A stretch of 64,000 nucleotides of DNA from Candidatus Omnitrophota bacterium (GTDB lineage: Bacteria; Omnitrophota; Omnitrophia; Omnitrophales; Aquincolibacteriaceae). Position 1 is the stretch's first letter. Each line of letters begins with the position of its first letter. The notes below the pieces were generated by a model. It was not told where the DNA came from, ran no database searches, and worked only from the letters and a program-made list of their open reading frames with translations. Below, piece after piece: positions 1,154 to 59,341 of this stretch. The position numbers were made by a program, and so were the translations under genes. The DNA is taken from positions 143,674-207,673 of the forward strand of contig JAKLFP010000002.1 of the NCBI GenBank assembly GCA_022711115.1. The letters are read 5' to 3'.

Positions 1154-2156
1154 TGCCAGAGTATTCGCTTTTAAGCCAGGCTTGAAGTTGTTCCTTGGTC
1201 ATCCATTCCTGGTTGTTTTCACTGGAATAGCTGAAACCATCCGCGCATTTTTTTCCGTTGCCGATTCGCTGAGTGCATTTGTGCCAATTATAAATATCCG
1301 GCAAAATCTTGAAAAAAGTGCGATACTCATAGGTGTGGCGAGCATCGTCTTCACCAATCATAAATTCATGGAGTTTTTCTCCAGGACGAATCCCGATGAT
1401 TTTCTGCTTTGCCTTGGACGAAATAGCTTTGGCAATATCCACCACCTTCATCGATGGGATTTTAGGCACATAAATTTCGCCGCCCACGCAATCCTCCAAC
1501 GCAAACCAGACGAGCTCAACCGCTTGTTCCAATGTGATCATAAAGCGGGTCATCCGCTTGTCCGTGATGGGAATTTCACCGGTCTTAGCTCTTTCATTAA
1601 AAAACGGAATGACGGAACCGCGACTGCCCATGACATTCCCGTAGCGAACCACCGCAAAACGGATGTCATGCGCACCGGCATAAGCATTCCCGGCAACAAA
1701 TAATTTATCCGAGCATAGCTTGGTGGCACCGTAAAGATTAATCGGGTTACAGGCCTTGTCCGTACTGAGGGCAATGACACGCTTCACTTTTTGAGCAATG
1801 GCCGCCTCGATGACATTCATCGCGCCATGAATATTGGTCTTGATAGCTTCAAAAGGATTGTATTCGGCCGTCGGAACGATCTTGGTTGCCGCAGCGTGGA
1901 TCACATAATCCACTTCCTGAAACGCCAAATTGAGTCGTTCACGTTCACGAACGTCGCCTATGAAATAACGAAGTACTCCTTTTTTATCATGAGGAGCAAA
2001 TTCCTTCTGCATATCCCACTGCTTCATTTCATCCCGGGACAGCACGATCAGTTTTTTGGGAGAAAACTTTTCAAGCGTCATCCGGACAAATTTCTTCCCG
2101 AAAGAACCCGTTCCGCCCGTAATAAGAATTGATTTGTTATCCAATAGATTTTTCAT
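1137..2156 (-). CDS. pseB: UDP-N-acetylglucosamine 4,6-dehydratase, short soluble PseB/FlaA1/CapD-like SDR
   Basis: 339 aa. Rossmann motif ITGGTGSFGK, catalytic YGATKLCSDK (YxxxK), and the PseB-like block PITDKRMTRFMITLEQAVELV. It is immediately followed by a DegT aminotransferase, the classic dehydratase/aminotransferase pair. Confidence 0.75.
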   Translation of the reverse strand: MKNLLDNKSILITGGTGSFGKKFVRMTLEKFSPKKLIVLSRDEMKQWDMQKEFAPHDKKGVLRYFIGDVRERERLNLAFQEVDYVIHAAATKIVPTAEYNPFEAIKTNIHGAMNVIEAAIAQKVKRVIALSTDKACNPINLYGATKLCSDKLFVAGNAYAGAHDIRFAVVRYGNVMGSRGSVIPFFNERAKTGEIPITDKRMTRFMITLEQAVELVWFALEDCVGGEIYVPKIPSMKVVDIAKAISSKAKQKIIGIRPGEKLHEFMIGEDDARHTYEYRTFFKILPDIYNWHKCTQRIGNGKKCADGFSYSSENNQEWMTKEQLQAWLKSEYSGNDTLR

Positions 2157-2173
2157 AGATTTCCTCTGAAAGG

Positions 2174-2416
2174 TTATCCATCAATATCCTTATGAACCCA
2201 ATGCCTTGCTTTGTTATAGGCTTTCCCGACTTTATCTTCAAGCTCAGGCGATAAAACACGCAAAAGCTCTTTGCCCATGATCCGATATTGTTTCCCGACT
2301 TTGGCCGCGCGGATCAATCCCTTTTTGATCATGCGCGTCATGGTGCTGGAACTGATTTTGAGTAATTTCTGGGATTCTTTTGGGGTATAAACTGCATTCT
2401 CTTCAATCGCTGGCAT
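2174..2416 (-). CDS. Small HTH_17 / excisionase-family DNA-binding protein
   Basis: 80 aa. The core LLKISSSTMTRMIKKGLIRAAKVGKQYRIMGKELL matches the Xis/MerR-like HTH_17 signature (...G.I.A.KVG.QYRI). ATG verified at 2416. Confidence 0.6.
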   Translation of the reverse strand: MPAIEENAVYTPKESQKLLKISSSTMTRMIKKGLIRAAKVGKQYRIMGKELLRVLSPELEDKVGKAYNKARHWVHKDIDG

Positions 2417-2540
2417 AGCATCTCCTCATCAAGTGAACTTATAAAGAAGTATAGCTATCAATTCATATTATGTCAATAGATGTCATTGATAGTCATTGGA
2501 CGCCAAAAACCACTGACAATATTGCTCTAACCTATTGAAT
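2417..2540. promoter_or_regulatory. AT-rich intergenic region with imperfect palindromic/direct repeats (tgtcaatagatgtcattgatagtcattgg). Candidate promoter/operator upstream of the HTH gene
   Basis: Repeated gtcattg units and a tcaatag...tcattga near-palindrome sit directly 5' of the minus-strand HTH gene. Confidence 0.25.
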
Positions 2541-27982: not shown

Positions 27983-28172
27983 CGCTTTTATTTTATCATG
28001 AAAACAACTCGTCAACGACTCGAAGAATAACCGACAGACCATCAAGGCCTCCAACTTATTAAAAATTAAAATGTATCCGGCATTTAAATCTATTTCAATT
28101 TTTATTGATTTCCATTAGTCTGTTATCAAATTCTTGGTCATTCAGCAGCCAGAAAGTCACATACACCAATCA

Positions 28173-29720
28173 ATGAAACTTAGCATCCCGAGCACGATCA
28201 GTTTAACATCCCGAAACCCTTCGGCGTTAATTTTCAGAGCGTCTTTGATTTTTTTTCTAATCATCAATGCCATTTTTTTACGGTTTAACTTTTTATCTTT
28301 TTTTGAACCGATGGACTCGGGAGGATTTCAGGCCCTCGCCTACAGGCTTCTGGAACACCAGAAACCCTACGTCGATTTTCTTTATCACAGCGGCCCTGTG
28401 TTTCCTCTGACCATGGCATTATTTATGACCCTTTTCGGGTTCGGGAAAGCTGCTATTTTCGCCCATTTATTATTCACAAGTTCTGCTTACATTCTTTTTA
28501 CCTATTGGATCGCAAAAAAATTCCTTCCCCCTGCATTTGTTTTCTTTATCTTGCTTGTCACCACGGTTTCTTTCCACTGGTTCTATCCTTTTCCCAATTT
28601 CGGAACGGATGCCCTGCTGTGGAGTCTTATCGGAGTTTGGTTTTTATTACGTGCGGAACCTTTTAAAAATCCTTCGAGTGCCTTTGTGCATCATTTCGGA
28701 TGTGCGCTCTCCGGAGTTTTAGCTTGTTTTACGAAATATAATTTGGGCCTTCCTTTTGTGTTGTTTTTCTTTATCGTCTCTTTCTTTTCATCTTTCCGTC
28801 CCGCCGCCTTGCTCGGGTTCCTGCTCGGTATGTTTTTAACCGTCTTCCTTTTGCGTATTTTCTTAATACCGGACTTTCACGCATTCCTTTTTGGCAACCT
28901 TCTGCCTTACACCATCACCCAAAGCAATCGTATCGCGGACATTTTAAAACCCCAGACGCTCATGATTCACGCATACTTTCCTGTGCTCCTTGTAACCCTT
29001 TTTTATATTTTTCCGCACACAAAACAATTTCTCAAATTAACCGTTCTCCTAACGCTAAGCACTTTAGGCGCCATTATCTTTTTCTCTACGAATTCCGCCC
29101 ATTTTTTTTCAAATGTGCCACTCCTCCTGGGATTCATTCTTATCTGCCAAACATACGGGAGTGATCAGAACTCTGAGATGAGAACAGGTCTTCGACAATT
29201 CAAGTATGGTTTGGCAGCTTTGTTTGTATTAGGGATATCCGTCATGGCATATTTTTCGGCCTTTACTCTCGCTCTTTTAAAAGATTACCATCGCCAAAAT
29301 ACCTATAAACTTCAGACCGAACCCCTAAAGGGATGGTCGAGTCCCTCTTCCTGGGGGCCGGCCCTTGATCATCTCGTCCCTCTCATTCGCCAGCAGATAC
29401 CTAAGACCGATTCGATGGCTGTTTTAACTGAAATGGAAATTCTTTATCCATTGACAGGTCATAAGAGCTTCAAAGGGCTTCCCCTGAATTTTTTTATGCC
29501 GCACCTGGAAAGATCCGAAAAAACTCAATCTGACATCCGAAATGCGATTATTCTGAACCCGCCTGACTGGATTATTACGGAAAACCGACATTATCCCCTT
29601 TTCCCCTTTAACGTCATCGTCCATATCACAGGTCTGGATAATTTTCTTCTCCAAAACTACAGAACTGTTCACACATTTGGTTATTATGTTGTGTTAAAAA
29701 AAATCAATCATCAAATCTAA
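28173..29720 (+). CDS. Polytopic membrane protein, probably a fourth GT-C (ArnT/PMT-like) glycosyltransferase. ATG at 28173; the track start at 28134 is TTG
   Basis: At least 12 hydrophobic helices. The first loop MDSGGFQALAYRLLEHQKPYV fits the GT-C D..Y...A..LL..KP pattern. A soluble C-terminal domain follows. Confidence 0.4.
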   Translation: MKLSIPSTISLTSRNPSALIFRASLIFFLIINAIFLRFNFLSFFEPMDSGGFQALAYRLLEHQKPYVDFLYHSGPVFPLTMALFMTLFGFGKAAIFAHLLFTSSAYILFTYWIAKKFLPPAFVFFILLVTTVSFHWFYPFPNFGTDALLWSLIGVWFLLRAEPFKNPSSAFVHHFGCALSGVLACFTKYNLGLPFVLFFFIVSFFSSFRPAALLGFLLGMFLTVFLLRIFLIPDFHAFLFGNLLPYTITQSNRIADILKPQTLMIHAYFPVLLVTLFYIFPHTKQFLKLTVLLTLSTLGAIIFFSTNSAHFFSNVPLLLGFILICQTYGSDQNSEMRTGLRQFKYGLAALFVLGISVMAYFSAFTLALLKDYHRQNTYKLQTEPLKGWSSPSSWGPALDHLVPLIRQQIPKTDSMAVLTEMEILYPLTGHKSFKGLPLNFFMPHLERSEKTQSDIRNAIILNPPDWIITENRHYPLFPFNVIVHITGLDNFLLQNYRTVHTFGYYVVLKKINHQI

Positions 29721-45900: not shown

Positions 45901-46742
45901 CTAACCTACCCTGGCAAATCCGGGTATTGCCAGGGTTAGTCCACCAAGCAGCTTTTTATAATCTGAAGTTCTCTTTGCGTATCTTGATGCTCTGCCACAA
46001 ATTTCTCGTATGCCCTAGGGACTATTGAGAAGACATGGTCGAAATGGCATAAATCTTCGCCTTGGTTTTTCTGGATATATTCCCGATAAGATGAATACTC
46101 CCAGTCCGAAGGCGATGAAACTAGCCCTGCAGAACATGGATTTATATGAATGTAACGCGACAAATGCAACGCCTGAGCATCGTTGTTGACAAGAACATAT
46201 TGGAATCGCGATTCCCAAAGCGTACCTTTTCGGCGGATTTTGAGATTGAAATAGCGCGAGTAACTATGAAGTACAAGCCGCATAAAATCCGATATACCCC
46301 TTTGCGTAACCTGCGCCAAAAGCAAATGCAAATGAGTCGGCATAACGCAATAGGCAATAATTTCAATACGTTCATCACTTTGAGAATTTCTTTTATCATT
46401 TTTATCATCTAAAAGAGAAGGCCGTTGGGACTTGGAAAAAGAGGTCTTGGGATGGGCGCTTTTGTAAAACCGAAGCGTTTCAATCATCCTCAGGAATTCG
46501 TCAGGATAGCGAAATATTTCAAATCCCGCGATACTTCGAGCGAAGACGTGATAAAAACAACCCGTTACAAGCGGAACTTTCCGTTGGGGCATATTCGCGT
46601 TGTCAAAATACCTTTCTTGATTGTCAGTGGGGCTACCGACCCCTTGTCAAATCCTGGATTTGACAAAACTAAGAGTATCATAATATTGAATAAAAATCAA
46701 ATATAAATTGAAGAAAAAGCATGTCAAATCCCGGATTTGACA
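45901..46742. mobile_element. REPtron-like unit: the RAYT gene flanked by REP-like hairpins at 45901-45939 (cctggcaa...ttgccagg stem with an aatccgggta core), 46645-46665 (tgtcaaatcctggatttgaca) and 46722-46742 (tgtcaaatcccggatttgaca)
   Basis: Two perfect 21-nt palindromes differ by one base, and a third related hairpin overlaps the RAYT stop. The shared core is aaatcc(c/t)gg. Confidence 0.5.
45936..46592 (-). CDS. IS200/IS605-like HuH tyrosine (Y1) transposase of the REP-associated (RAYT) type
   Basis: HuH motif YCVMPTHLHLLL, catalytic-Tyr region LSRYIHINP. About 218 aa, with no second (TnpB) ORF. Flanked by REP-like palindromes. Confidence 0.8.
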   Translation of the reverse strand: MPQRKVPLVTGCFYHVFARSIAGFEIFRYPDEFLRMIETLRFYKSAHPKTSFSKSQRPSLLDDKNDKRNSQSDERIEIIAYCVMPTHLHLLLAQVTQRGISDFMRLVLHSYSRYFNLKIRRKGTLWESRFQYVLVNNDAQALHLSRYIHINPCSAGLVSSPSDWEYSSYREYIQKNQGEDLCHFDHVFSIVPRAYEKFVAEHQDTQRELQIIKSCLVD

Positions 46743-46832: not shown

Positions 46833-49800
46833 TTACGCGGCTTTCGACGTCGCCTGGATCGTCAGGATATCGGACCAGAGCTTCGCCAAACCCGCTAATT
46901 TCATCTCATCGATGCCAAAGTACGCCTTCACCCGCTTCAGAACATCATCGCCAAGCTGACGGTTCAAAAGCGCCATGGCATCCATATTCTTGATCGATAC
47001 GTTCAGTTGTGCCGCCTTCATGGCCAAGAGACCTCTCAGACCCGCGTAGGCCTTGTTCCCTTTTTGGCTGTCAAACACCGTTCCGCTGAATTCCTTGTCT
47101 AGCATCTCCGGCATATCTTCGATCAAAAGAACCAGATGCTCTCCTCGATCCATCTCGGCAGTCAAGGCAGGATCCATCTTCCGAAGGTCACGGAAAACCT
47201 CACCCTCCGCCGTGCGGATCGCTTGGGCCGCTTGAAGCGTATTCGCAAAATTAATCGTCATACGGTTATCGATCAGCGAGCCTCGATAATCCGTCGTCTG
47301 CTGGATATTATCCCTGATATCCGCTTGGATTGCCAACTGCTCCGCTACCGAAACCTTATCGTTAACAACCAAAATACGGACAACCGCTCTGGGGTTCATT
47401 CCCAGCTGAAGTTTCAACTCATTCAGCCTCGCGGCATCGGGCAGTTCTTTCATCACGATCAGCACACCGCCAATATCGGTCGAAACAGAAATCACGGCAT
47501 TCGTCATGATCGACTTAGCAACCTCGGATTCGAGGAACTTGGTCCAATCCATTTCTCCGGTCTTGAGTGCGACCAATGTCGTCAAGGCAGTCACAACTTG
47601 TTCCACAGTCGGATTGCCAAAGGCAGGCACTACGATTTTCGCGACCACATCATTCAGAGTATCTGTTCCATACTTAAAAGGTTCACTTTCCAATTTTCTC
47701 AGGATTTCCGGTGCTAGCAGCCTCCTGACCTGATCAACCAATTCCTGGCGGACTTCGATCTCCAACTTGATCACCGGCAATTGAGGCCCCGCCTCCCTCA
47801 CCTCGGAGCGGGTCAATCGCCCCTTCAGTGCTAATTTAACAGCTTCGATAGTTCCAGGTCGCTGGCTCCGATCAGTTTCAGCTTTTAGGATACTATCTTC
47901 AAGAGCATTCATGCTGTTCGCAAAAAAGTCATTCCTCGTTTCCAACACGGCCATATGATGCAAGCTAGGGTATGATCCAGTCCTGATGGCAAAAGCGTCC
48001 AACCAATGCATGACATCTTCCTCACGAGTTTGGATCGTGTCAGCCGCAGCTATCGTTATTTCCCATGCGCTGACCACGCGATCAATGGTCTGCATTATGT
48101 TCGCAGATAATTTCCCCCTCACCTCGGAGCGGGCAGGACTGCGATATACAGTTTCTCCGCGCAATGTAATTTGCGCCGGTAACATTAAACCATCCGTTGT
48201 TTCTATCCGTAATTTGGAAAATTTTCCGCCAATATCTCGAAAGGGCACATGCCTGGCTTCGTCAAGATCAGTGACGAGTATACGCATCATTTTCCCTACC
48301 GATTTTCCTTTAGCATCAAGGGCCGTGACAAACATAACACTCCCTGCATTTAAACCATTTTGACGGATCGGATTAAGATTCAGTCGAACAAGATCTTTGG
48401 CATTGATCGGCTGATCTAGCCGCAGGGTGTATTCTCTTGCCTGCGTTGTTTTTCCATCCACGTGTCCAGTTATGATTTGGGTACCTAAGCCTATCACATG
48501 GAATTGACTCATTCTTACTTCGGAACGAGGCCCTCCTAAAAATCCTTCTGCCCCTCCTCCTCCGATGTCCGGCGTAAAGTCATATCGGCCTTGTTTCACA
48601 TTGATGGTTGCCGATTCAGGGCCTGTTAACGTAAATGAAAAGGTTCTCGCTTCGTGCACATTGATCCCCTGAACATTATTGATGTCAATCGTGTAATTCT
48701 GAGGCGTGTTCAAAACTCCAGTCAAATTAGCACGCCAGGTCTTCCCTTCGGCATCTTGAATCTCATAGCCGACAACGGGAGCGTTTGTACTCCCTAAGGA
48801 AAAGGTGATCCCATTGGGAAACTGCGTCGGGAGATCCACATTATTGGTGTAATTTGCAAAAACACCCCCAAAACTCGCCGTATTTTCTCCCACATAATTG
48901 AATGTGAATGTGTTCGTCTCCGTAACCTTGAGCTCCCCAACCACATTCGTACTGCTCACAAAATTACCCAACCCAACAAATGGCAATGGCGTGACGCTGG
49001 CAGTTTGATTCCCAGGCGGAACATCGGGAGCAAAATTCCAAGAACCCATGACTAGATCAGCGTTCTTAGGACCTTGCCCTTCAAAAACATAGACCATCTG
49101 ACGGACCTGCGTCGGATCAATCTTACGAGCCATTTGGTCCAAAGGCAGCGTGTATTTTTGCGAGCTGGGAGTAATACCGCTTAAAATGCCTGTCCAAGTA
49201 TTCGTATTGGCATCTTTAACCTCGACCTTCAAATGATCCAGATTGGGACTCGCAATCGAAAAGGTTAATCCGTTCGGATAAAGACTTTGAAAGTTAATAT
49301 TATTGGTATATTCAAACACCGTTCCCGCATAACCGGTAGCATTCGTGCTCGAGTAACTCATGCTCATGGTGTTTGTCCCGGTAATATTATTGAAAACCAC
49401 TTCACCTCCTGGCCCTGTGAAATTCATCGGATTAACTTGCGGCAGCGGTGTAATGGCAGCACCCTGATTGCCAGGAGGAATCGAGGGAACATAATCCCAA
49501 GATCCTAAAACAAGATCCGCGCTCTTGGGACCTTGCCCTTCAAAAACATAGACCACCTGCCTCACCTGAGTCGGATCAATCTTTTGTTGAAGGAGGTTGA
49601 GCGACAGCGTGTATTTTTGTAAACCCGGAGTGATGCCGCCAAGCATCCCTCTCCAAGTGTTGGTATTCGCATCTTTGACCTCCACTTTCAAGTGATTCAG
49701 ATTGGGGCTTGCGATCGAAAACGTCAGACCATTCGGATAAAGACTTTGAAAGTTAATGTTATTGGTATATTCAAACACAGTGCCCGCATATCCCGTAAAA

Positions 49801-52800
49801 TTCGTACTCGTATAACTCGCAGTCAGCGTATTGGTGCCCGTGATATCATTGAAAACCGATTCACCAGTCGGACCTGTAAAGGTCGTCGGATTCACTTGCG
49901 GCAGCGGCGTGATGGCAGTACTTTGATTTCCGGGCGGAATGATAGGAACGTAATCATAAGGACCAAGCTCAATCACATAGGTCTTCTGCCCTTCTCCTGC
50001 GGCGGTGAACACAATCTCCCGGATCTTGGTCGTATCGATCCCGTATATCTGATTCAAATTCACCGTGTATTTCTGAGGCGTCTCGGTAATGTCGCTAACA
50101 TTGCCACGCCAAGATCTTCCGTTCTCATCCTTGATCTCGAGAACCAACGAAGTGGCATCCAAACTGCCTACCGAAAAGGTAAGTCCATTCGGGAATTGAC
50201 TCGCAAAATCCACGTTATTGGTGAAACTTGAAAAAACACCCCCGAAGCTCGCGACATTGATACCGCTGTAACTCAAACGAAGAGCATTGGTCCTGATCAC
50301 CGTAACATCGGCAACCGTGTTCGTGCTGTCGGTGTAACTTCCCGTATTATTATTGACAGGCAACGGCGTGATCAAAGCACCCTGATTGGCTGCGGGCAAA
50401 ATCGGAGGAACATAGCTGTAGGGTCCAAGTTCGATCACATAGGTCTTCTGCCCTTCCCCTACCGCAGTGAAAACGATCTCTCGGATCTTAGTCGTATCGA
50501 TCCCGAATATTTGATTCAAGTTGACCGTATGCTTTTGAGCAGTCGCGCTAATACCGCTGATATTCCCACGCCAAACGTTCCCGTTCTCATCCTTGATCTC
50601 AATGCCCAAAATCGTCGCATTCGTGCTGGAAACTGAAAAGGTAAGACCATTGGGAAATGCGCTTGCAAAATCGACGCTATTAGTAAAACTTGAGTAAACC
50701 CCTCCATAACTATCCGCACTCGGTCCCGCATAATTCAGCATCACAACATTGGTGTTTTGCGCTGTGGCCAGAACCGATGCGTTCGTGCTATTAAAAGTAC
50801 CGAAGTTATTAAACGGCAAAGGGGTGATGTTGGCCGCTTGATTCCCAGGCGGAATATCGGGAATAAAATTCCAAGAGCCCATGACAAGATCGGCACTCTT
50901 CGGGCCTTGCCCTTCAAAAACATAGACCATCTGACGGACCTGCGTCGGATCAATCTTCCGAGCTATTTGGTCCAAAGGCAGCGTGTACTTTTGCTGATCC
51001 GGCGTGATGCTGCTAAGCATGCCAGTCCAGGTGTTGGTATTGGCATCCTTAACCTCGACTTTTAAATGATCCAGATTGGGACTGGCAATCGAAAAGGTCA
51101 GACCATTCGGGTAGAGATTCTGAAAGTTGATATTATTCGTGTATTCAAACACTGTCCCCGCATAACCGGTGGCATTCGTGCTCGCATAACTCATGCTCAG
51201 GGTATTGGTCCCAGTCACATTATTGGTAACTACCTCGCCTGTTGGTCCTGTAAAAGTGGTGGGATTGACCGTTGGAAGCGGTGTAATGTCCGCGGTTTGA
51301 TTGCCGGGAGGAATCGACGGAATATAGTTAAAATTTCCCCAATCCACATAGAGCGTTTTCTGTCCCTGACCTTCGATCACAAGCGTGATTTCCGTGATAT
51401 GCGTCTGATCAAGCGCTGGAGCATATTGCGTCATAAAACTGAGCGGAATATTAAAGCCTTTTCCTGAAGGCGTCAGATTGGATAGATATGCCGCAAAAAC
51501 ATTACCTCTCCCGTCCTTGAACTCAATCTTCACCCTTGAAAGATTGGGACTCGCTGCGAAGAGTCTCAAACCAGTCGGATAATTGGTCACCAAATTGATG
51601 GGGTTGTCTGCAAAATTGAATGCGGGACCCGCATAACTGGCAGTTCTGGCGCCGTTGACATTCACGGTCAAAAAGTTTTGCTCGTTTACCGTGTTCGTGA
51701 TCGTCGTACCGTCGTTGGAGTCAAAACTCCATAAATTCTGAACGGTCGGAAGCGGAGTCGCGGCTTTCTTCACGGCGCGGTAAACCTGCATGGGATTCAG
51801 CGAGAAATTTTGAATGAAATCAAGCGGCTGACCGGGTAAAACGAATTGATTGGTAACCAAAGTTCTCCACGGGCCGTTCACCTGCGCTGCGGCTTGAAGA
51901 TCAATGGCTCCAGGGCTGTAAGGCGCTTCCACGCGTACAGTTCCATTTTCACTAATAGACATCTGAGGCGGCATGAGCCCAGCCTCTGCGGCGTTTGTCA
52001 TTGTCACAGGCGCTTGGGATATTCCTACCACACTCATCAAACCAAACATAAGGGTCCGCAAAAGCGACGGCCTCATACTTCTGACAAACTGCTCTTGCGG
52101 CTGCGCCATCTCTTGACCCCTCATCTCCGAACGCATGCGGCTCCGAATAGCTTCATCAAGCGCGCGCAATGCGGGCTCATCTATTAGACCAAATTCAACT
52201 AATTTTTCCTCCACTTGCCTGCTTGCGTTCGCCAGTGCGAGGGCATTCCGCACGGCCCTCGTCGGATCAATTTTGAAAGCTACAACATCCGCCACTGTTT
52301 CGAGAGCCCAATCCGACTCGTCTCCCTGCACCCATTGCAAAAATTTCTCGATACCCGCATCAACCGCCCCCCTCACTTCGGATCGGGAGGCAACAGCGGT
52401 TTTGACCGCATCGACAAGTTGAACACCTGAAAAGGGCTTTGACAAAAATCCAACACTGGATTGTGCTACTGCTTTTCCTTCCACTGCGCTCAACCCTTCT
52501 GTCCCACCGCTCATCACAAGTGCCGCAATCGAATTGTTTTTAGCCCGGGCAGCTTCGACAATAACACTTTTTATAACCCCATCGCTTTTTTGAAAGGTAT
52601 CCTGACCATGCAGGATCCTGTCCGTGACCAGTACGTCAAAATCGTTTTCACTGATGGCTTGACGAGCGCCGTCAACCGTATCTGCGAATATCACGATCGC
52701 CCCTTCGCTCTCAAGTATTGCTTTTACTACTTCAAGAATCATGGGCTCATCATCAACAGCAAGAATCCGTTTTCCCGCAAGATTGATATCCGTAGGCAGA

Positions 52801-55800
52801 ACCGCCCTCACCTCGGAGCGGGTGGATTCGTCATATCCCTCAAGACGGATGTGGAGAGGCGATTGCCATTGCATCGTGGGGGTACTTGAACCAGTCCAGG
52901 AATTATATTGGGAAATTTTGTTGATATGCCCCTTGGGGTCTATCTCAAGCAGATAAAGCTGGTCCCCTAGCCGCTGGGGCGCTGTGTCCCTGAAACGTGC
53001 CAATTTAACAGAGAACTTTCCGCCTTCCCAGGAAATCCGACCTACGATCAGCATACCGCGCCAACCGAAATGCAATATACCGCCAAGCGGCTTGGACAGA
53101 ACCAAATCCTGACCCCAAAGACCTCGTAATAGCGTAAACCATGGCCTTGTAATCATCCTGAAACCGAAATCGACCCCACGAGAAATCGGCGCTAACAGAC
53201 GAAAGCCAGAAACACTTGTTAATGAACGAAGCAATTTGTTATCAGCCTCTGGATCTCTTCCATTCCCTACAAGCATCGGCGATAGCGGACGTCCTGTGGC
53301 ATCGAGATTGTCTGTCGCTTTCAAAAAGGCTCTCTGCAGACGCTGATAAATTTCATAACTTGGCATGGCACGTCCATAAGCCAACCACACCAGAAAAGTC
53401 AAAAAGATAAAATCATGCCGCTTGAGATAAATGACCTGGTTGTTCGCGGTAACCAAAAATGCCCGGCTTGATTCGCTCAAACGTCCGGCAATGCTCTGAA
53501 TCGTCTGTCTGGGAACGACGCTTTCATCATTCGCAAGCGCGTCTTTTTCCAGTTGTTGGATAAACGGCCTCCAATTTTCCTGATCCGTTGCCAGCATTTC
53601 GATTGCCGTGTCGATATTAGACCTCACCTCGGAACGGGCGGATTCGTCGCGTTTCATTCGTTCTTGTCTGGCTATGAACCACTTCCCAAAATAGTAGAGG
53701 CTGGTGCCCGCTAAAATTGCCGCCGGAACCACCATAGCCCCACGAATGATCCTGCCGAGTGAAGCAAAATTTATGACCGCACGATCCGATAGTGAAGCCT
53801 TGCCTTGCGGAGGTCTGACATTCACAACATCACGAATGAATGCCGTTGCGGCAGGATATCCGGGCTTACTGAACGGAAAAGTCGTCAGCCCTTTTAATAC
53901 AAAATCAATTTGGCCGCGTGTATTTCTTTGATGCTCATCCCATGCCATCACAAGGATCATGGCCCGCATGACTGTGAATTCCGATTCGGGGTGCACGGTC
54001 ACGCGGGTTGCGCCGCCGGTCCGTACCAGCCGCGTCCCACTGATCATTCCAATCCGTGTCGGAATGCCCCCGGCTCCGACCACTTCGGCTCTTTCCAAAT
54101 CGCTTTGATTGATAATAAAATCCCGGGAAATGAGACTTCCGAAGATTCGCGCATTCCAGAGACTGATGAGCCACAAGGCCCTCTGGTCCATCTCCGAAAA
54201 ATTTCTCACGGCCGGGTATTTAGCCAGAAATTCCGATTTTTTCTGAGCCCAGAGATTGTTGATATGCCCATTGACTGTCTGGACACGTTCTACCGGTGTC
54301 TTTTCCTCAAAATAGGTCCAGGCATGAAAGCGCTGATACTTTCGAGCGTCATCGATCCACTGATTCACTGACGGATAGGCCTTCCCAAGCCGGTATTCCT
54401 GAAATTGAGGAAAACCTTGCGCCTTGAGCGCGGCAGCACCTGCCGACTGCACAGGTCCTTGTGTTCTGGGAGCCTCCCCTGCTTCCACGGTTAAAGCACT
54501 TGCCAAAAGACCCAAACTGGCGGCAAAAAAAGTACGTCGCGTCACGGGCTGAAGTATTTCACGTTCTGACACTCTCAGTTCGGATCGCAAATTTTCTCTC
54601 GTCTCTCGAGCGCTTTCAATCAACGTCCCAAGTCTTTGGAACTCACTCGGCATGTTCAACGAAACGCCTGGCTGGGCCCGCAATCTTTCCGCAGCGGTTA
54701 TCATGGCTGCTAATTGCCCGTCTGCCTCTGCATCAACTGTTCCGCTTTGGACACGATCCTGTAATGCCCAAAATTGGCGTTCCAATTTTTTCACATCATC
54801 CGGCGTCGCCCTCAATTCGGCACGGGCCGCCCCAGAAGAAGAAAAGCCTAAACGACGTTCAAAGAAAGCGCGAGCTGCCCCTGCATAGTCGCGAAACTCC
54901 GGTCTACCGCTTGCCGGTTGATACGGAATTTCGGAAACTCGAAGTTCGTTTCGTCTTGTCGAATCCGCATGGGCAACCACAAGACTTGCGCCCAAGGCCA
55001 TCGCATCATATAAATGCGTCACATGAAACGCCTGCATTTCCTGACCCGGCTTAAAAAGCTGAGGAAAACTGACGACGAGACCGGAAACTGCCTGACCCTT
55101 TTGATCAACCGCCCTTGATTCCGCACGGAGTTCGATCGCTTTTATTCTGCCTGTTGCTTTCAGTTTATCGATCAGTGTGTTAATATCGGCAATGTCAAGC
55201 GTCCGCAGTTCCGAGCGGCCGGTAGATGTTCCTATGAAAGGGCGAAAACCGTTAACCCTCTCCCCAAGCGCCCAGCGAAACTGTTTGACAATGAACGCCG
55301 GAACCGCCGCTTGATACAGATGGATCATGTTTAACATTTCACCAAGAAAATATCGCAGTCTCTTGCCCCGTAATTCCGAGCGGCCGGTCGTTGCGCCAGT
55401 CTTTTCAATCTTCATTTCTCTCAGAGAACTGTCATTAGCATCATTCACAACTATCGTTTCACGCCCACTCCTGATAAACATTTCTTGAACATTAGCGGGC
55501 AAATCCTGCATCGTCAGACTAGATGCCGGTAAGTCCATCTTGGTTACTGGCGCGTTCGGCGTCGTGCCCCCCGCAACATTCACAGCCATCTTTGTGCCAG
55601 CCGTCGTATTCGTAGAGCTGAGCCGTGCAAGCGCCGGAGAATTCGTCGAAAAGATGAAAACACCACCATCTCCTTTATTTAAATAATATCCGGACCGAGC
55701 CTCCCAATTCATCAGATTATGTGTCTCTTCCGTTCTTACACCATTTATGGCAACCTCAAACGTTGTCGCCATCCGTCCATTCGGTAGTTGGAACAAATTC

Positions 55801-57983
55801 GGTGACATCGTGCCTGCATTCCCTTGCGCTCGCGCCACGTTGAGTGACAACGCCAAACCCATCAACGCTAACCCTATCTTCTGCCACCAATTCGATCGCA
55901 GCTCAGAACGACCTGCTAATGCCGGAGCCGGAGTTTTAGCCGCTGTCTCGACGAGCGCCAATGATGGTACTGCAATGGATGTTGCTCTGGAAGCCGGCGC
56001 AGTCGCATTCACAATCGTCGCTTTTTCTCCCATGACCGCAGATTGACTTGTTGCGGTCGCGGTACGAATCATGGCGGTCGTGCCTTGCTGAACGGCTATA
56101 TCCCATGTCTTGGTACTATCATTAAATACAAGCGTTCGAGTTCCCGTTTTACCATCTACCACGTACGTCATCGACCCTCCGCGCGTGGTCATGATCGGTA
56201 CTGCGCCTTTATCCGCCATATATCGGAAATTCTGATCCATAGTTGCGGTCGTTGTGATATCAGCCGCTGCGTCCAAGGCCGCGCTGACCACGAGTCGAAG
56301 CGTTTTAGAGCCGTCCTTGCCCATCGGATCTCCAGTCATCGTGACAGCATTTTCAATGGTCGCAATGTCAAAACGGGTCTTGGTGCGCTGTAACATGGTA
56401 TCGCGGTAAAGCTTCTCATCACTTTTTTCGCTGAGACGCGGCGTGACGATCCCGTAGCTGATGTCATGATCGCGGAAGATCTCGCTCAAACCGTCCGTGT
56501 GATAACCCCCGGTAATCAGAACCGCTTTGCCGATATTTTCTTCTGAAAGTTTTTTTTGGATTTGCACAAAAAAGGCATCTTCACGTTTCCTCGCGAGATC
56601 ATAGAAATCAATGCCGCTTGTGAAAAGTTCGGACATGCGTTTGGAAAAATCGGGCGGCATGACTTTCTGTTTCATAAGCGATTCGTCATTTTTGGAGACG
56701 GCCACCGCCTCCGTCAAACGCCCGACCATGGACTCGATGGTGAGGATCTTTTGTTTGTCCTGCACTTTGCGCGATTCCGTGCGGTTGAGTTCCAGGTGCA
56801 GCAGTTTGCGGAGGAGTTCGCCATCCCGATAAAGTTCGAGAAGATTCTTCTGCGCGGGCTCCTTGGCCAAGGTATCAAGCATTTTAGCGAAAAGGAATTC
56901 GATCTCTTCAAAAAGAGCTTTCGGATCCAGTTCATTTTTGAGGACCACATAACCGGCATAAAGACTGAAATTCGGATAATCGCTGAACTTGAATCCTCTG
57001 GGTCCGGCTTCCGCCGCCAGTTGTTCCAGAACCCATCGGGGCAATATTTCTTTCGCATCCTTACCCGTACCGGCCCTGCCCATACTGATATTGCCTTCCT
57101 GAAAATTTTCGATGGCCCGGACAAGTGCCTCCGAAGTTCTTTTTTCGCGAAGAAACTTCACGAGGGAATCCCGTTCGGCCAGCGCCTTGTTCCGCTCCAC
57201 GTCTTTTTCCATTGTCTGAATAACAAGAAGACGCGTGATTTGCGGCCAACCGACCTGGGCGAACAGGCTTTCCAGGTCCACGTTCAGAACCTTCTTCGCT
57301 TGTTTGACAAGCGATTTTACATAGGGCAAAAATTCGCGCCGCCCCATCTCAAAGCTTTTCCAATCCGCGATAAGCCCGCGTGTATCCGGTGTAAACGTTT
57401 TGGACGCAACTTGCTCCAGCCTCACGTCGAAAACTCGAAAGAATTTTTCCACATCCGTTTCGGCCCCAAAGACTTTCTTCAAGGCGTTGTAATTTTGTTT
57501 ATAGAGGGAAGCATTTTCGATACCGATCGCCTCCACTTCCGGCGGTGCCTCCAGCAAATAAAGTTCGGCACCCGTCAATTCGCCCTGTTTTGCCAGATTA
57601 TCGGAAAGCTTCAGATTGCGTTCCTTGTCCGGGAAAAGACGGAGATAATCCGCATTCAGTTTTTCAGAAGCGCCTTCCACGAACACGGTTTTGATCGCGT
57701 ATTTTTTGTTCAGGTATTCCAGGAGCTGCTTGATCTTGATTTGCGCCTGATAATTGGCGTGGGCATTCTGAATGTGAAGCACAAATTTCGGATCTTGTTT
57801 GACTGGCGCCTCATAAATTTCATCGATGCTTGCAAGGTCCGCAGGAATATCAAGGCTCAGAAAATTAGGGATTTCCCGAGGGTTGGCTATTTCGATGCGA
57901 GCGCCCGGATCTGCCCATGTGCACTGCGTGGTCAAAAAACAAACTACTGTTATTATCGCGACCACTTTTAAATACTTTTTCAT
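46833..57983 (-). CDS. Giant modular protein (3716 aa) of unknown function. It has an N-terminal signal peptide and an embedded CheY-like receiver domain. About 7 tandem 150-aa beta-sandwich repeats are present. At least 13 RSE[LV]R junction motifs occur, and internal Sec/Tat-like hydrophobic segments follow some of them
   Basis: An uninterrupted 11.15-kb frame. ATG at 57983 is preceded by a GGGGG Shine-Dalgarno. The signal peptide is MKKYLKVVAIITVVCFLTTQCTWA. The receiver domain is RILAVDDEPMILEVVKAIL...VLVTDRILHG...LSKPF. See findings for the repeats and motif. Confidence 0.8.
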   Translation of the reverse strand: MKKYLKVVAIITVVCFLTTQCTWADPGARIEIANPREIPNFLSLDIPADLASIDEIYEAPVKQDPKFVLHIQNAHANYQAQIKIKQLLEYLNKKYAIKTVFVEGASEKLNADYLRLFPDKERNLKLSDNLAKQGELTGAELYLLEAPPEVEAIGIENASLYKQNYNALKKVFGAETDVEKFFRVFDVRLEQVASKTFTPDTRGLIADWKSFEMGRREFLPYVKSLVKQAKKVLNVDLESLFAQVGWPQITRLLVIQTMEKDVERNKALAERDSLVKFLREKRTSEALVRAIENFQEGNISMGRAGTGKDAKEILPRWVLEQLAAEAGPRGFKFSDYPNFSLYAGYVVLKNELDPKALFEEIEFLFAKMLDTLAKEPAQKNLLELYRDGELLRKLLHLELNRTESRKVQDKQKILTIESMVGRLTEAVAVSKNDESLMKQKVMPPDFSKRMSELFTSGIDFYDLARKREDAFFVQIQKKLSEENIGKAVLITGGYHTDGLSEIFRDHDISYGIVTPRLSEKSDEKLYRDTMLQRTKTRFDIATIENAVTMTGDPMGKDGSKTLRLVVSAALDAAADITTTATMDQNFRYMADKGAVPIMTTRGGSMTYVVDGKTGTRTLVFNDSTKTWDIAVQQGTTAMIRTATATSQSAVMGEKATIVNATAPASRATSIAVPSLALVETAAKTPAPALAGRSELRSNWWQKIGLALMGLALSLNVARAQGNAGTMSPNLFQLPNGRMATTFEVAINGVRTEETHNLMNWEARSGYYLNKGDGGVFIFSTNSPALARLSSTNTTAGTKMAVNVAGGTTPNAPVTKMDLPASSLTMQDLPANVQEMFIRSGRETIVVNDANDSSLREMKIEKTGATTGRSELRGKRLRYFLGEMLNMIHLYQAAVPAFIVKQFRWALGERVNGFRPFIGTSTGRSELRTLDIADINTLIDKLKATGRIKAIELRAESRAVDQKGQAVSGLVVSFPQLFKPGQEMQAFHVTHLYDAMALGASLVVAHADSTRRNELRVSEIPYQPASGRPEFRDYAGAARAFFERRLGFSSSGAARAELRATPDDVKKLERQFWALQDRVQSGTVDAEADGQLAAMITAAERLRAQPGVSLNMPSEFQRLGTLIESARETRENLRSELRVSEREILQPVTRRTFFAASLGLLASALTVEAGEAPRTQGPVQSAGAAALKAQGFPQFQEYRLGKAYPSVNQWIDDARKYQRFHAWTYFEEKTPVERVQTVNGHINNLWAQKKSEFLAKYPAVRNFSEMDQRALWLISLWNARIFGSLISRDFIINQSDLERAEVVGAGGIPTRIGMISGTRLVRTGGATRVTVHPESEFTVMRAMILVMAWDEHQRNTRGQIDFVLKGLTTFPFSKPGYPAATAFIRDVVNVRPPQGKASLSDRAVINFASLGRIIRGAMVVPAAILAGTSLYYFGKWFIARQERMKRDESARSEVRSNIDTAIEMLATDQENWRPFIQQLEKDALANDESVVPRQTIQSIAGRLSESSRAFLVTANNQVIYLKRHDFIFLTFLVWLAYGRAMPSYEIYQRLQRAFLKATDNLDATGRPLSPMLVGNGRDPEADNKLLRSLTSVSGFRLLAPISRGVDFGFRMITRPWFTLLRGLWGQDLVLSKPLGGILHFGWRGMLIVGRISWEGGKFSVKLARFRDTAPQRLGDQLYLLEIDPKGHINKISQYNSWTGSSTPTMQWQSPLHIRLEGYDESTRSEVRAVLPTDINLAGKRILAVDDEPMILEVVKAILESEGAIVIFADTVDGARQAISENDFDVLVTDRILHGQDTFQKSDGVIKSVIVEAARAKNNSIAALVMSGGTEGLSAVEGKAVAQSSVGFLSKPFSGVQLVDAVKTAVASRSEVRGAVDAGIEKFLQWVQGDESDWALETVADVVAFKIDPTRAVRNALALANASRQVEEKLVEFGLIDEPALRALDEAIRSRMRSEMRGQEMAQPQEQFVRSMRPSLLRTLMFGLMSVVGISQAPVTMTNAAEAGLMPPQMSISENGTVRVEAPYSPGAIDLQAAAQVNGPWRTLVTNQFVLPGQPLDFIQNFSLNPMQVYRAVKKAATPLPTVQNLWSFDSNDGTTITNTVNEQNFLTVNVNGARTASYAGPAFNFADNPINLVTNYPTGLRLFAASPNLSRVKIEFKDGRGNVFAAYLSNLTPSGKGFNIPLSFMTQYAPALDQTHITEITLVIEGQGQKTLYVDWGNFNYIPSIPPGNQTADITPLPTVNPTTFTGPTGEVVTNNVTGTNTLSMSYASTNATGYAGTVFEYTNNINFQNLYPNGLTFSIASPNLDHLKVEVKDANTNTWTGMLSSITPDQQKYTLPLDQIARKIDPTQVRQMVYVFEGQGPKSADLVMGSWNFIPDIPPGNQAANITPLPFNNFGTFNSTNASVLATAQNTNVVMLNYAGPSADSYGGVYSSFTNSVDFASAFPNGLTFSVSSTNATILGIEIKDENGNVWRGNISGISATAQKHTVNLNQIFGIDTTKIREIVFTAVGEGQKTYVIELGPYSYVPPILPAANQGALITPLPVNNNTGSYTDSTNTVADVTVIRTNALRLSYSGINVASFGGVFSSFTNNVDFASQFPNGLTFSVGSLDATSLVLEIKDENGRSWRGNVSDITETPQKYTVNLNQIYGIDTTKIREIVFTAAGEGQKTYVIELGPYDYVPIIPPGNQSTAITPLPQVNPTTFTGPTGESVFNDITGTNTLTASYTSTNFTGYAGTVFEYTNNINFQSLYPNGLTFSIASPNLNHLKVEVKDANTNTWRGMLGGITPGLQKYTLSLNLLQQKIDPTQVRQVVYVFEGQGPKSADLVLGSWDYVPSIPPGNQGAAITPLPQVNPMNFTGPGGEVVFNNITGTNTMSMSYSSTNATGYAGTVFEYTNNINFQSLYPNGLTFSIASPNLDHLKVEVKDANTNTWTGILSGITPSSQKYTLPLDQMARKIDPTQVRQMVYVFEGQGPKNADLVMGSWNFAPDVPPGNQTASVTPLPFVGLGNFVSSTNVVGELKVTETNTFTFNYVGENTASFGGVFANYTNNVDLPTQFPNGITFSLGSTNAPVVGYEIQDAEGKTWRANLTGVLNTPQNYTIDINNVQGINVHEARTFSFTLTGPESATINVKQGRYDFTPDIGGGGAEGFLGGPRSEVRMSQFHVIGLGTQIITGHVDGKTTQAREYTLRLDQPINAKDLVRLNLNPIRQNGLNAGSVMFVTALDAKGKSVGKMMRILVTDLDEARHVPFRDIGGKFSKLRIETTDGLMLPAQITLRGETVYRSPARSEVRGKLSANIMQTIDRVVSAWEITIAAADTIQTREEDVMHWLDAFAIRTGSYPSLHHMAVLETRNDFFANSMNALEDSILKAETDRSQRPGTIEAVKLALKGRLTRSEVREAGPQLPVIKLEIEVRQELVDQVRRLLAPEILRKLESEPFKYGTDTLNDVVAKIVVPAFGNPTVEQVVTALTTLVALKTGEMDWTKFLESEVAKSIMTNAVISVSTDIGGVLIVMKELPDAARLNELKLQLGMNPRAVVRILVVNDKVSVAEQLAIQADIRDNIQQTTDYRGSLIDNRMTINFANTLQAAQAIRTAEGEVFRDLRKMDPALTAEMDRGEHLVLLIEDMPEMLDKEFSGTVFDSQKGNKAYAGLRGLLAMKAAQLNVSIKNMDAMALLNRQLGDDVLKRVKAYFGIDEMKLAGLAKLWSDILTIQATSKAA
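48540..51950. repeat. About 7 tandem coding repeats of about 456 bp (152 aa) inside the giant gene, in two alternating sequence subtypes
   Basis: Units begin ...IPPGNQ.A.ITPLP and end ...(F/Y)(I/V)P. Subtype 1 carries TFTGPTGE...KVEVKDANTNTW; subtype 2 carries IKDENG..WRGN. Several units are at least 85-90% identical at protein level. The antisense frames repeat as well (MIQIGACDRKRQTIRIK... at 49692 and MIQIGTGNRKGQTIRVE... at 51066). Confidence 0.8.
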
Positions 57984-58178: not shown

Positions 58179-58910
58179 TCAAGTTTTTTCAACAAAACGG
58201 ACAGCCAGACCTAATTGTTCCTTTCGAACTTCCTTGCGGCATATCTCCCCTGAAATTTGATATTCTTCCGGAAAGTTTGCGCTCGGAAATATATGGATCT
58301 CAACCTTAAGGCCCTCGATAGGATTCAACGCATCAATCCTATGAGAAACCCCAAGGTCAAGATATTCCCCGAAAAGCCCCCCCTCACTGATATTTGTCGC
58401 AATGGCGGTGGTTTGGATCATTTCTCCGCTTGCGGTAAATATCTTTAATTCCAGCGGAACCGCAACGTGCATGCGGTGGCTCCGCCGCTGTTCTAGCTGA
58501 TAGCCAAGCGACTCCTGGGGGGTTTTAACACCCTTGGCCATAATCTTCTTGTCGGGATCCTTAACGAAAAGAAAGGGCCCAAAAGATTCGGCCACCTGCT
58601 TCTCATCCGAGCAGATATCCACTTTCCCCGAGGGAAAGTTATCCTCGATACAGTGGGCCATTTCTGGCGTCACCCCGTAAAGCACGCTATGCTTGGGACG
58701 GATGCAAACCGTCAAAAGACGTCGCATCCCTATCGCATCCAGAGGACCCGACTCTTGGAAGTTTAGGATAATCTGCTGCAAGCCGTAGCGCCGGATGTTT
58801 TTCTGAATCTTCCAGGCTACCTCCTGCACCGATTCAAAGGTCGGCATGCCCTTGAGATCAAAAACCGAAACCCCGCCGATTTCTCGCGTTGAATAATGGA
58901 ATTTAGTCAT
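58179..58910 (-). CDS. STAS (anti-sigma-antagonist-like) - PilZ fusion protein; putative c-di-GMP receptor. ATG at 58910; the track start at 58997 is GTG
   Basis: N-terminal STAS-like fold (MTKFHYSTREIGGVSVFDLKG...). C-terminal PilZ motifs QRRSHRMHV (RxxxR) and NISEGGL (D/NxSxGG). Confidence 0.6.
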   Translation of the reverse strand: MTKFHYSTREIGGVSVFDLKGMPTFESVQEVAWKIQKNIRRYGLQQIILNFQESGPLDAIGMRRLLTVCIRPKHSVLYGVTPEMAHCIEDNFPSGKVDICSDEKQVAESFGPFLFVKDPDKKIMAKGVKTPQESLGYQLEQRRSHRMHVAVPLELKIFTASGEMIQTTAIATNISEGGLFGEYLDLGVSHRIDALNPIEGLKVEIHIFPSANFPEEYQISGEICRKEVRKEQLGLAVRFVEKT

Positions 58911-59341
58911 AACGCATCTTCCTCTTTTTGAACCGTTCGACCCTCCAAAGAATTCGGTGGATTCTGGGATAGATGTACCCTGAAAGAATATCTCCACGCT
59001 GGATGACGTAGGCCAATTGAGGACCCCCTTTCCCGTTCATTTTCATACTGCGAAAATCTTGAAGATCATGTGTCATTTTCATCACTCCTCTTTTTCAAAT
59101 TGTCCATAATATCATTTAACAACTTTTACTATGTTCTAACAAAAACATAACTCAGTAAAATACTTTTGTCAATATGTTATATATATAAAATATTTAATTA
59201 TATATTTTATTAATATTTATAAATATATATATCAAAAACAAGCAAATACATAACAAAAATGAGCCAAATTGACTCACTCTAAAAAACTTAAATCACTACC
59301 TTGGAAAGTCCTTGCCGGAGGCAAGAAGATTTTTAGAAGAT

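Follow-up and report, generated by a model that had tools for sequence, protein, structure and literature searches.

An R-S/A-E-x-R peptide at the unit boundaries of a giant protein family in Candidatus Omnitrophota

The window analysed here is a 64,000-nucleotide stretch of contig JAKLFP010000002.1 (positions 143,674 to 207,673 of the forward strand) from a Candidatus Omnitrophota bacterium, assembly GCA_022711115.1. Its minus strand carries a giant open reading frame (ORF) encoding a protein of 3716 amino acids (aa), and our subject is a short peptide, bounded by two arginines, that recurs along this protein. An earlier note, made from the sequence alone, had listed 13 copies; all 13 fit R[SNA]E[LVM]R and lie in frame with the giant ORF (Table 1). 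The protein belongs to a family of modular envelope proteins that is spread across this uncultured phylum. Members open with a signal peptide, which leads into a domain of TIKI/TraB/ChaN-like fold; at the other end stands a conserved C-terminal domain, and anything from no variable unit to a dozen or more lies in between. Every homologue of residues 1-545 is from Candidatus Omnitrophota, and the 3716-aa protein is also encoded, identical, on metagenome contigs of the Joint Genome Institute (JGI), one of them 340 kb long.

Table 1. Features of the giant ORF and its product, ordered from the N-terminus, in coordinates of the window.
Feature	Position (aa)	Coordinates	Strand	Remarks
Giant ORF	3716 aa in all	46833..57983	-	Signal peptide, N-terminal domain, ~13 motif-delimited units, C-terminal domain
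N-terminal signal peptide or anchor	1-27	57903..57983	-	MKKYLKVVAIITVVCFLTTQCTWADPG; read from sequence; hydrophobic peak aa 5-23; conserved in relatives
Conserved N-terminal domain	1-545	56349..57983	-	TIKI/TraB/ChaN/Ere-like fold
Motif 1, RSELR	692	55896..55910	-	
Sec-signal-like stretch directly after motif 1		55818..55895	-	SNWWQKIGLALMGLALSLNVARA/QG; read from sequence
Motif 2, RSELR	868	55368..55382	-	
Motif 3, RSELR	923	55203..55217	-	
Possible degenerate copy, RAESR	953	55113..55127	-	
Motif 4, RNELR	1011	54939..54953	-	
Possible degenerate copy, RPEFR	1027	54891..54905	-	RPExR variant used throughout relative L022
Motif 5, RAELR	1054	54810..54824	-	
Motif 6, RSELR	1133	54573..54587	-	
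Tat-signal-like stretch directly after motif 6		54471..54572	-	VSEREILQPVTRRTFFAASLGLLASALTVEAGEA; T-R-R-x-F-F read from sequence
Hydrophobic helix closing the Tat-signal unit	1412-1434	53682..53750	-	Motif 7 comes 16 aa later
Motif 7, RSEVR	1450	53622..53636	-	
Motif 8, RSEVR	1722	52806..52820	-	Immediately N-terminal of receiver unit
Response-regulator receiver domain	1740-1861	52401..52766	-	Pfam PF00072, 34.5 bits vs cut-off 30.2; NCBIfam matches
Motif 9, RSEVR	1867	52371..52385	-	5 aa past receiver domain
Motif 10, RSEMR	1951	52119..52133	-	
Signal-peptide-like stretch after motif 10		51999..52118	-	…FVRSMRPSLLRTLMFGLMSVVGISQAPV…
Seven ~155-aa tandem repeats	2076-3083	48735..51758	-	First partial; one motif-free unit; self-BLAST 37-64% identity
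Motif 11, RSEVR	3153	48513..48527	-	
Motif 12, RSEVR	3285	48117..48131	-	
Motif 13, RSEVR	3392	47796..47810	-	Positionally conserved junction ahead of C-terminal domain
Conserved C-terminal domain	3397-3716	46836..47795	-	Alpha/beta Rossmann-like core; family ends …[AS]A

The 13 copies did not arise by chance, because the rest of the window, read in six frames, holds a single further R[SAN]E[LVM]R, which lies inside a 25-codon stretch that is not an ORF. For a wider view, species-representative genomes were scanned; at least 541 relatives were confirmed among 598 matches aligned, and 78 loci were taken for motif analysis. Several genomes carry more than one copy of the family and some hold three or more. 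An unbiased count of pentapeptides (5-mers) over the 172,848 aa of ORFs of at least 1000 aa at these loci returned, outside the conserved N-terminal domain, RSEVR (62), RSEMR (57), RSEAR (48), RSELR (32), RSETR (24), RSESR (19), RAEVR (17) and RSEIR (15) at the top of the list, every top 5-mer being expected 0.1-0.4 times. These counts correct the consensus to R-S/A-E-x-R, in which the fourth position tolerates V, M, A, L, T, S or I. The G-R-S-E-L/V-R first proposed was too narrow at both variable places, and the flanks are near-uninformative, with a weak preference for A/G/S at position -1 and for G/A at +1.

Selection acts on the peptide, as the earlier note had argued. In alignments between proteins with a mean identity of ~41%, R-x-E-x-R is retained at 38 of 48 motif sites, position 4 varying freely, and the codons do vary between copies. 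Some copies in the window nevertheless share identical 15-17-mers: the 17-mer CCTCACCTCGGAGCGGG has three exact occurrences and two more that differ by 1-2 mismatches (0.02 expected), and a second sequence, TTCCGAGCGGCCGGT, occurs twice. These near-identical subsets had been taken for recent duplication or gene conversion. That interpretation fails, since the identical stretches are islands whose flanks show 12-42% identity, the random level; they recur because they spell motif codons preferred across the whole phylum. The same identical copies are the one observation that would make the motif a compositional or chance artefact, or a remnant of recent internal duplications. With RSE[VML]R observed 151 times where ~1 is expected, permuted controls at 0-2, and the motif found in dozens of divergent species, we give such an origin next to no credence and regard it as essentially excluded.

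The motif is near-confined, but not strictly limited, to one family. Its density, ~1 per 1000 aa where ORFs reach at least 1000 aa, drops to 0.01-0.016 per 1000 aa where they are shorter than 600 aa; a check of its frequency in other proteins found 0 motifs in nine unrelated large ORFs of the same loci. Among 54 homologues of the N-terminal domain, 12 copies were counted against 0.7 expected, permuted control patterns giving 0-2. Motif-rich large ORFs fall into three classes: (i) those that begin with the conserved N-terminal domain; (ii) continuations of an N-terminal-domain gene past a frame break; (iii) C-terminal parts of an upstream tandem paralogue at the edge of a locus, ending …[AS]A. 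Single proteins hold up to 12-15 motifs, and some lineages use their own variant throughout, such as RAEKR, RKELR and RQEKR in L010 (15 sites) or RPEAR and RPESR in L022 (4 sites). One coherent variant at all sites of a protein would be expected if the sites co-evolve with one recogniser. The literature searched holds nothing relevant on RSEVR or RSELR, or on a motif or cleavage site of Omnitrophota giant proteins, in agreement with the earlier note, and two preprints on Omnitrophota giant proteins describe no such motif. A profile of concatenated motif contexts run against 5.8 billion proteins gave two marginal small ORFs and is uninformative on the wider distribution. These two products, P0056 (90 aa, JGI) and P0055 (41 aa), consist of tandem heptads, …QRSEVRSQKSEVRSQRSEVRGQKSEVR…, and may be translated repeat DNA.

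The motif delimits units of module size, as first proposed. The median spacing is 255 aa (interquartile range 133-424), and BLAST homology blocks begin and end at motifs: 19% of block starts lie within 5 aa of a motif, compared with 3.5% for random positions. Motif-to-motif blocks recur at differing positions in different proteins, for example L013 1265-1838 with L044 783-1340, L023 2347-2652 with L026 1504-1811, and L027 973 with L062 1022. Within the window protein the receiver domain is bracketed by a motif ending at aa 1726 and another starting at aa 1867, and no copy lies between aa 1951 and 3153, the interval that contains the tandem repeat block; both points had been made before and both hold. 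Motif 13 aligns to RSExR or RAExR in 7 of 9 close relatives, directly before the C-terminal domain, and the sequence upstream of it is unalignable. Within 10-15 residues on each side of the motif, small and polar residues are over-represented and core hydrophobic ones under-represented, a linker-like composition, and in an AlphaFold2 model of the C-terminal region motif 13 sits in a stretch with a predicted local distance difference test score (pLDDT) of ~40.

What follows the motif is also distinctive. Of 265 cases, 30 show a hydrophobic, signal-like stretch in the 45 aa that follow the motif and 2 show one ahead of it; 5.8 would be expected (binomial p = 2.5e-7). Some of the stretches after the motif resemble Sec signal peptides ending in AxA, and one is lipobox-like (…YLALGC). 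In the window protein such stretches follow motifs 1, 6 and 10 (Table 1). The one after motif 6 resembles a twin-arginine translocation (Tat) signal and reads VTRRTFFAASLGLL…. A hydrophobic helix with a basic tail, the ending of this Tat-like unit, is the usual grammar of tail-anchored Tat substrates. Judged from their sequences, the units appear to be built like separate proteins, with targeting signals of their own at the N-terminus, and R-S/A-E-x-R would be a short linear peptide signal that marks the N-terminal boundary of each autonomous unit.

The same enrichment, seen 3-35 aa downstream, could mean that the motif is a topogenic or targeting mark on the cytoplasmic side of the membrane, telling Sec, the signal recognition particle (SRP), YidC or a dedicated factor where translocation or insertion of the next segment starts. 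Its two arginines would agree with the positive-inside rule, but such a rule needs no invariant glutamate. A hydrophobic stretch follows only ~11% of motifs, and motifs also flank the clearly cytoplasmic receiver and soluble-looking units of 43-130 aa. We hold a topogenic role to be improbable.

The N-terminal domain offers a candidate for a protein that acts on the motif. Its structural relatives are ChaN, EreC, a TraB family protein, HopBA1 and two succinoglycan biosynthesis protein entries, which we take to be Ere-like; a parallel beta-sheet core is common to it and to ChaN, Ere, TraB and HopBA1. ChaN and HopBA1 are listed as members of the TIKI superfamily (PMC6254334), to which EreC and the TraB family protein are assigned by their family names. 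Those members of the superfamily that are active rely on a His-Glu pair, whose partners lie 28 residues apart both in Bcr135 (H85/E113) and in RRSP (H3902/E3930) (PMC6254334). Four residues of the window domain, H75 (in HIQNAH), E103 (FVEGA), E156 and H495 (TGGFHT), are invariant in 26 sequences. The spacing of H75 and E103 is likewise 28 residues, and at sequence level the pair is accompanied by a second histidine in a GxxH motif (H495 in GGFH). Searches of the domain against Pfam and NCBIfam (E up to 0.1), and of its profile against PDB sequences, returned nothing relevant, and Foldseek against the PDB gave no significant match, matches to a helical insert dominating. The models thus point to a fold-level resemblance with a plausible catalytic set, rather than to membership of a curated family.

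Invariant residues, free flanks, linker context, near-restriction to one family, concerted variants and position at unit boundaries together argue that the motif is a short linear signal read by a protein acting in cis or in trans. Cleavage is the most economical account of such reading, because targeting signals follow the motif, one unit is exactly a cytoplasmic receiver and other units are repeats of surface type. Taking as shown the unit boundaries, the sequence conservation, the linker context, the grammar of the units and the resemblance in fold, we infer, tentatively, that R-S/A-E-x-R is a recognition or processing site of a polyprotein-like precursor; this is the reading we favour, although we hold it at rather less than even confidence. 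A dedicated endopeptidase would recognise R-S/A-E-x-R and cut the precursor at or beside it, the scissile bond lying either after the glutamate, with a small or aliphatic P1' residue, or after the second arginine. Each unit so released would then go to its own destination or act by itself, in the manner of MARTX toxins or flavivirus polyproteins. The obvious candidate for the protease would be the family's own N-terminal domain with its invariant His-Glu pair, working in cis or in trans. The TIKI-type fold includes site-specific endopeptidases (TIKI, RRSP). The suggestion of a protease and a polyprotein in the earlier note is in this respect plausible and has gained in foundation, being consistent with the targeting signals after the motif and with the TIKI-like N-terminal domain.

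Several observations weigh against processing. No peptidase Pfam match was found in the giant protein or its neighbours. Some family members of 2000-3900 aa (L079, L067) are motif-free. One ORF, L068:19645-21564, lacks the N-terminal domain and yet carries two RSELR together with HSELR and KSELR; its product has a signal peptide and several membrane passes, with a hydrophobic helix after each RSELR. Without cleavage, a five-pass membrane topology of the window protein is self-consistent, the receiver lying inside and the repeats outside, so the internal 'signal peptides' could be ordinary transmembrane helices. That topology would place motifs on both sides of the membrane; as the N-terminal domain is predicted to lie outside the cytoplasm and many sites inside, the location of the candidate protease fits some sites only. 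Lastly, a pure protease-site model does not predict the synonymous-codon preference described below.

An alternative reading leaves the giant uncleaved. The motif would then be a docking or modification signal, or a hinge, with a serine kinase, a chaperone or an assembly factor as possible partner, and the giant would persist as one polypeptide. The invariant R, E and R, the free flanks and the linker-like context would suit a short linear signal of this kind equally well, and the five-pass topology would accommodate it. It leaves unexplained, however, why signal-like stretches come 30 times after the motif and twice before it, why lipobox-like and Tat-like signals, normally needed near an N-terminus, occur within the chain, and why tandem repeat domains within one unit need no hinge. 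We consider it unlikely.

The motif carries a second, codon-level layer. The motif is frame-locked: of the occurrences of the nonamer CGYTCCGAR, 152 are in frame, 3 fall in the other sense frames and 6 are antisense. The first arginine is encoded by CGC in ~60% of cases (CGC background ~20%) and by CGT in ~25%, and the serine by TCC in 53-59% against a background of 16-22%; the wobble base of the variable codon at position -1 is C in 52% against 24%, that of position 4 is G in 64%, and the second arginine is CGG or AGG in ~55%. For the glutamate GAA and GAG are used about equally, and aspartate (GAY) never substitutes. The bias is uniform across lineages of low, middle and high GC content at third codon positions (GC3), and L010 retains CGC at 13 of the 15 sites of its variant motif.

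Two candidate causes of this layer were examined and set aside. Codon-pair context was rejected, as RS and SE dipeptides outside the motif use CGC and TCC at ~20%. A CCCGC/GCGGG mini-hairpin fits the consensus, but its covariation is weak at one pair (3.6 standard deviations above shuffles) and nil at the others. For the motif itself, a mobile or repeated DNA element, whether a repetitive extragenic palindromic (REP) sequence, a miniature inverted-repeat transposable element (MITE) or an in-frame palindromic element, is contradicted by the frame-locked counts and by the random-level identity of the flanks.

The layer does raise the question whether the primary role of the motif lies at the level of nucleic acid or translation, which may coexist with a peptide role. 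In one version a ~17-nt consensus (CC CGC TCC GAR RYG MGG) would be an in-frame recombination junction between paralogues; in another it would be an mRNA signal for pausing or RNA processing, the peptide being partly a by-product. A codon preference that is specific to the motif, the same in all GC3 classes and retained in variant motifs, the different codons taken by the two invariant arginines, the movement of units between proteins at motif boundaries and the recurrence of exact 15-17-mers in the window are all in keeping with this. Against it, codon positions 1 and 2 are near-invariant while the wobble base still varies by 40-50%, and position 4 spans seven amino acids; a varying wobble base, a tolerant position 4 and a glutamate never replaced by aspartate argue for selection on the protein. 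A non-palindromic site of 15 nt is too short for known site-specific recombinases, the hairpin covariation is confined to one pair, and no Shine-Dalgarno-like run precedes the site. A primary role at this level is in our judgement distinctly unlikely.

Translation could in principle also begin within the motif. The giant ORF would then be a string of genes and position 4, often ATG, GTG or TTG, an internal start. Summed counts put ~44% of position-4 codons at ATG, GTG, TTG, CTG or ATH, and 'M-R-…' would suit the N-terminus of a signal peptide. About one third of position-4 codons (GCN, ACN, TCN) cannot initiate, however; no Shine-Dalgarno-like or purine-rich enrichment was found upstream of the motif (-30 to -3); and the upstream unit has no stop codon, so that it would be read through in any case. 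Internal initiation is very improbable and is essentially excluded.

Taking processing and the codon layer together, a broader proposal can be framed, which we regard as doubtful in its full extent: Omnitrophota would encode true cellular polyproteins, each a single ORF cut at R-S-E-x-R by a dedicated protease, possibly the N-terminal domain, and the motif with its codon choice would be a junction for the exchange of units. The products would comprise Sec, Tat and lipoprotein substrates, a cytoplasmic receiver and surface adhesin repeats, each separately targeted. R-S-E-x-R, reinforced by conserved codon choice, would double as the in-frame junction at which paralogues exchange units.

Of the known systems, MARTX toxins and flavivirus-type polyproteins come closest in the working proposed here; like the Mycoplasma, gingipain and polymorphic-toxin motifs discussed below, they share neither the motif nor the domain set nor the taxon. 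In MARTX toxins an internal cysteine protease domain (CPD) autoprocesses the chain at Leu sites between effectors. They too are giant modular bacterial chains, of 3500-5300 aa; short cleavage sites lie in the linkers between their effectors, strains exchange units and the processing domain is encoded in cis, an arrangement that the present family would share. One of their effectors, RRSP, has a TIKI fold (PMC6254334). They differ in their site, x-Leu|Ala/Ser/Gly as opposed to R-S-E-x-R, and the window protein contains neither a CPD nor an RTX repeat; they belong to another phylum without sequence relation, and the Omnitrophota units bear Sec-, Tat- and lipobox-like signals. In flavivirus polyproteins, sites for signal peptidase and for the viral protease alternate and protein-size units are released. 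The grammar in Omnitrophota would be analogous, with short basic sites ahead of internal signal sequences and protein-size units from one ORF; unlike the viral case, this is a cellular chromosomal gene with housekeeping neighbours (PheST, AccBC), and no chymotrypsin-like protease domain was found.

Other precedents are more distant. Mycoplasma surface adhesins are cut at S/T-X-F|X-D/E, and gingipain/HagA polyproteins at Arg or Lys, in both cases at short motifs in disordered linkers. These too are large surface proteins processed into functional fragments, and gingipains are Arg-specific, but they rely on other motifs and other protease families, conserve those motifs far less strictly and have no internal targeting signals. 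VENN in CdiA and PxxxxDPxGL in Rhs proteins are short peptides that stand exactly where conserved and swappable modules meet, and modules are exchanged at the motif here as well. At such demarcation sites of polymorphic toxins the conserved DNA probably helps cassettes to be exchanged. Each protein there has a single motif, behind which come the toxin and then an immunity gene. A demarcation motif of the polymorphic-toxin type was rejected for the present family in view of its up to 12-15 motifs per protein, its conserved C-terminal domain and the lack of an immunity-gene pattern. The Omnitrophota giants described before ('Archaeovorins', dockerin-type) belong to the same phylum and are likewise multi-unit, membrane-associated ORFs with many internal hydrophobic helices and an adjacent pilZ. 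They reach 30-85 thousand aa and carry a C39, S8 or SecA-like domain, whereas the RSExR family measures 1000-4000+ aa and has a TIKI-like domain. The authors of that work suspect that the giants are cleaved, though by their account no cut site is known (West-Roberts et al. 2023, bioRxiv 10.1101/2023.11.21.568195). Published proteomics of Omnitrophota is sparse and was done with trypsin, an enzyme that itself cuts at the arginines of the motif.

With R-S/A-E-x-R, a protein family not described before is found to carry a junction signal that is new and extends across the phylum. The signal bears on the question whether Omnitrophota giants act as single chains or as cut pieces; in the published account, structure prediction and the dissection of function are both blocked for want of known cleavage points (West-Roberts et al. 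2023, bioRxiv 10.1101/2023.11.21.568195). R-S-E-x-R is the first candidate cutting or recognition site for these proteins, and in at least one widespread family it gives concrete junction positions at which units can be cut in silico and their shuffling traced. Should cleavage prove true, a cellular organism would be seen to use a polyprotein strategy, the giants of the phylum would have their first defined processing code, and the gene organisation would be one undescribed for bacterial chromosomes. Should it not, a new phylum-specific linear signal would still stand, with a codon-level constraint in need of a mechanism.

Residues 680-1730 of the window protein, searched with HMMER against 1.84 billion representative proteins, gave 0 matches, not even their own cluster, and the middle units are orphans. 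Pfam scans of six motif-rich relatives likewise found almost no domains. The receiver is the only Pfam domain in the giant protein; its PF00072 match covers profile positions 1-111 of 111, and the signature residues DD, D, S and K are present in VDDEP, VLVTD, MSG and SKP. The tandem repeats, which Tandem Repeats Finder (TRF) did not find at DNA level, are weakly similar to repeat regions of L019 and L021 and are probably surface beta-sandwich modules.

The C-terminal domain, the last ~320 aa, is present also in family members of only ~1000 aa. No specific structural relative was found for it, and a homologue search with this domain returned one match, likely a fragment. A small non-polar tail, …[AS]A (SAA, ASA, KAA or VSA), closes nearly every complete member of the family; the window protein ends …TSKAA (46836-46850), and like tails occur in L007, L011, L009, L025, L004, L012 and L036. 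From its sequence the tail resembles an ssrA-like end or one recognised by a tail-specific protease, and it may be a degron or a C-terminal processing signal.

The neighbours of the giant gene are housekeeping genes (PheS/PheT, MgsA, AccB/AccC and PFK), and downstream of it lie genes for an IS200-like transposase and a DUF1844 protein. A PilZ-domain protein of 272 aa is encoded directly upstream on the same strand (58179-58997, minus); pilZ homologues adjoin most Omnitrophota giant genes (West-Roberts et al. 2023, bioRxiv 10.1101/2023.11.21.568195). The IS200-like (Y1_Tnp) ORF just downstream occupies 45936-46592 on the minus strand (equal to L001:13392-14048). A second metagenome contig encodes the identical giant protein but has no call for this ORF; listed there in its stead is an ORF of 84 aa on the opposite strand (L002:13278-13532). 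The difference may reflect an insertion polymorphism or a gene like that of a REP-associated tyrosine transposase (RAYT). Elsewhere in the window, ORFs at 2540-4903 (minus), 17163-19562 (minus) and 28134-29720 (plus) encode products of 528-799 aa that have no Pfam match and are motif-free.

At other loci family members often stand in tandem (L049/L050 on the same contig, L028, L057, L058, L061, L071), the …[AS]A end of one being followed after 100-150 bp by the next paralogue, beginning with its signal peptide and N-terminal domain. Some genes are interrupted: in L031, L035, L062 and L074 consecutive large ORFs overlap in different frames, and in L069 there is a single in-frame stop (L069:16895-16897), motif-bearing sequence continuing downstream. 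These may be assembly errors, pseudogenes or recoding, and some of the junctions adjoin runs of N. Many loci (L022-L063), though not the window, have a gene for a ~700-aa protein immediately upstream of the family gene. Its acidic C-terminal tail often ends …IDFD… or …KRRILFD, and motifs such as …FLNEIP… suggest a UvrD/PcrA-like helicase.

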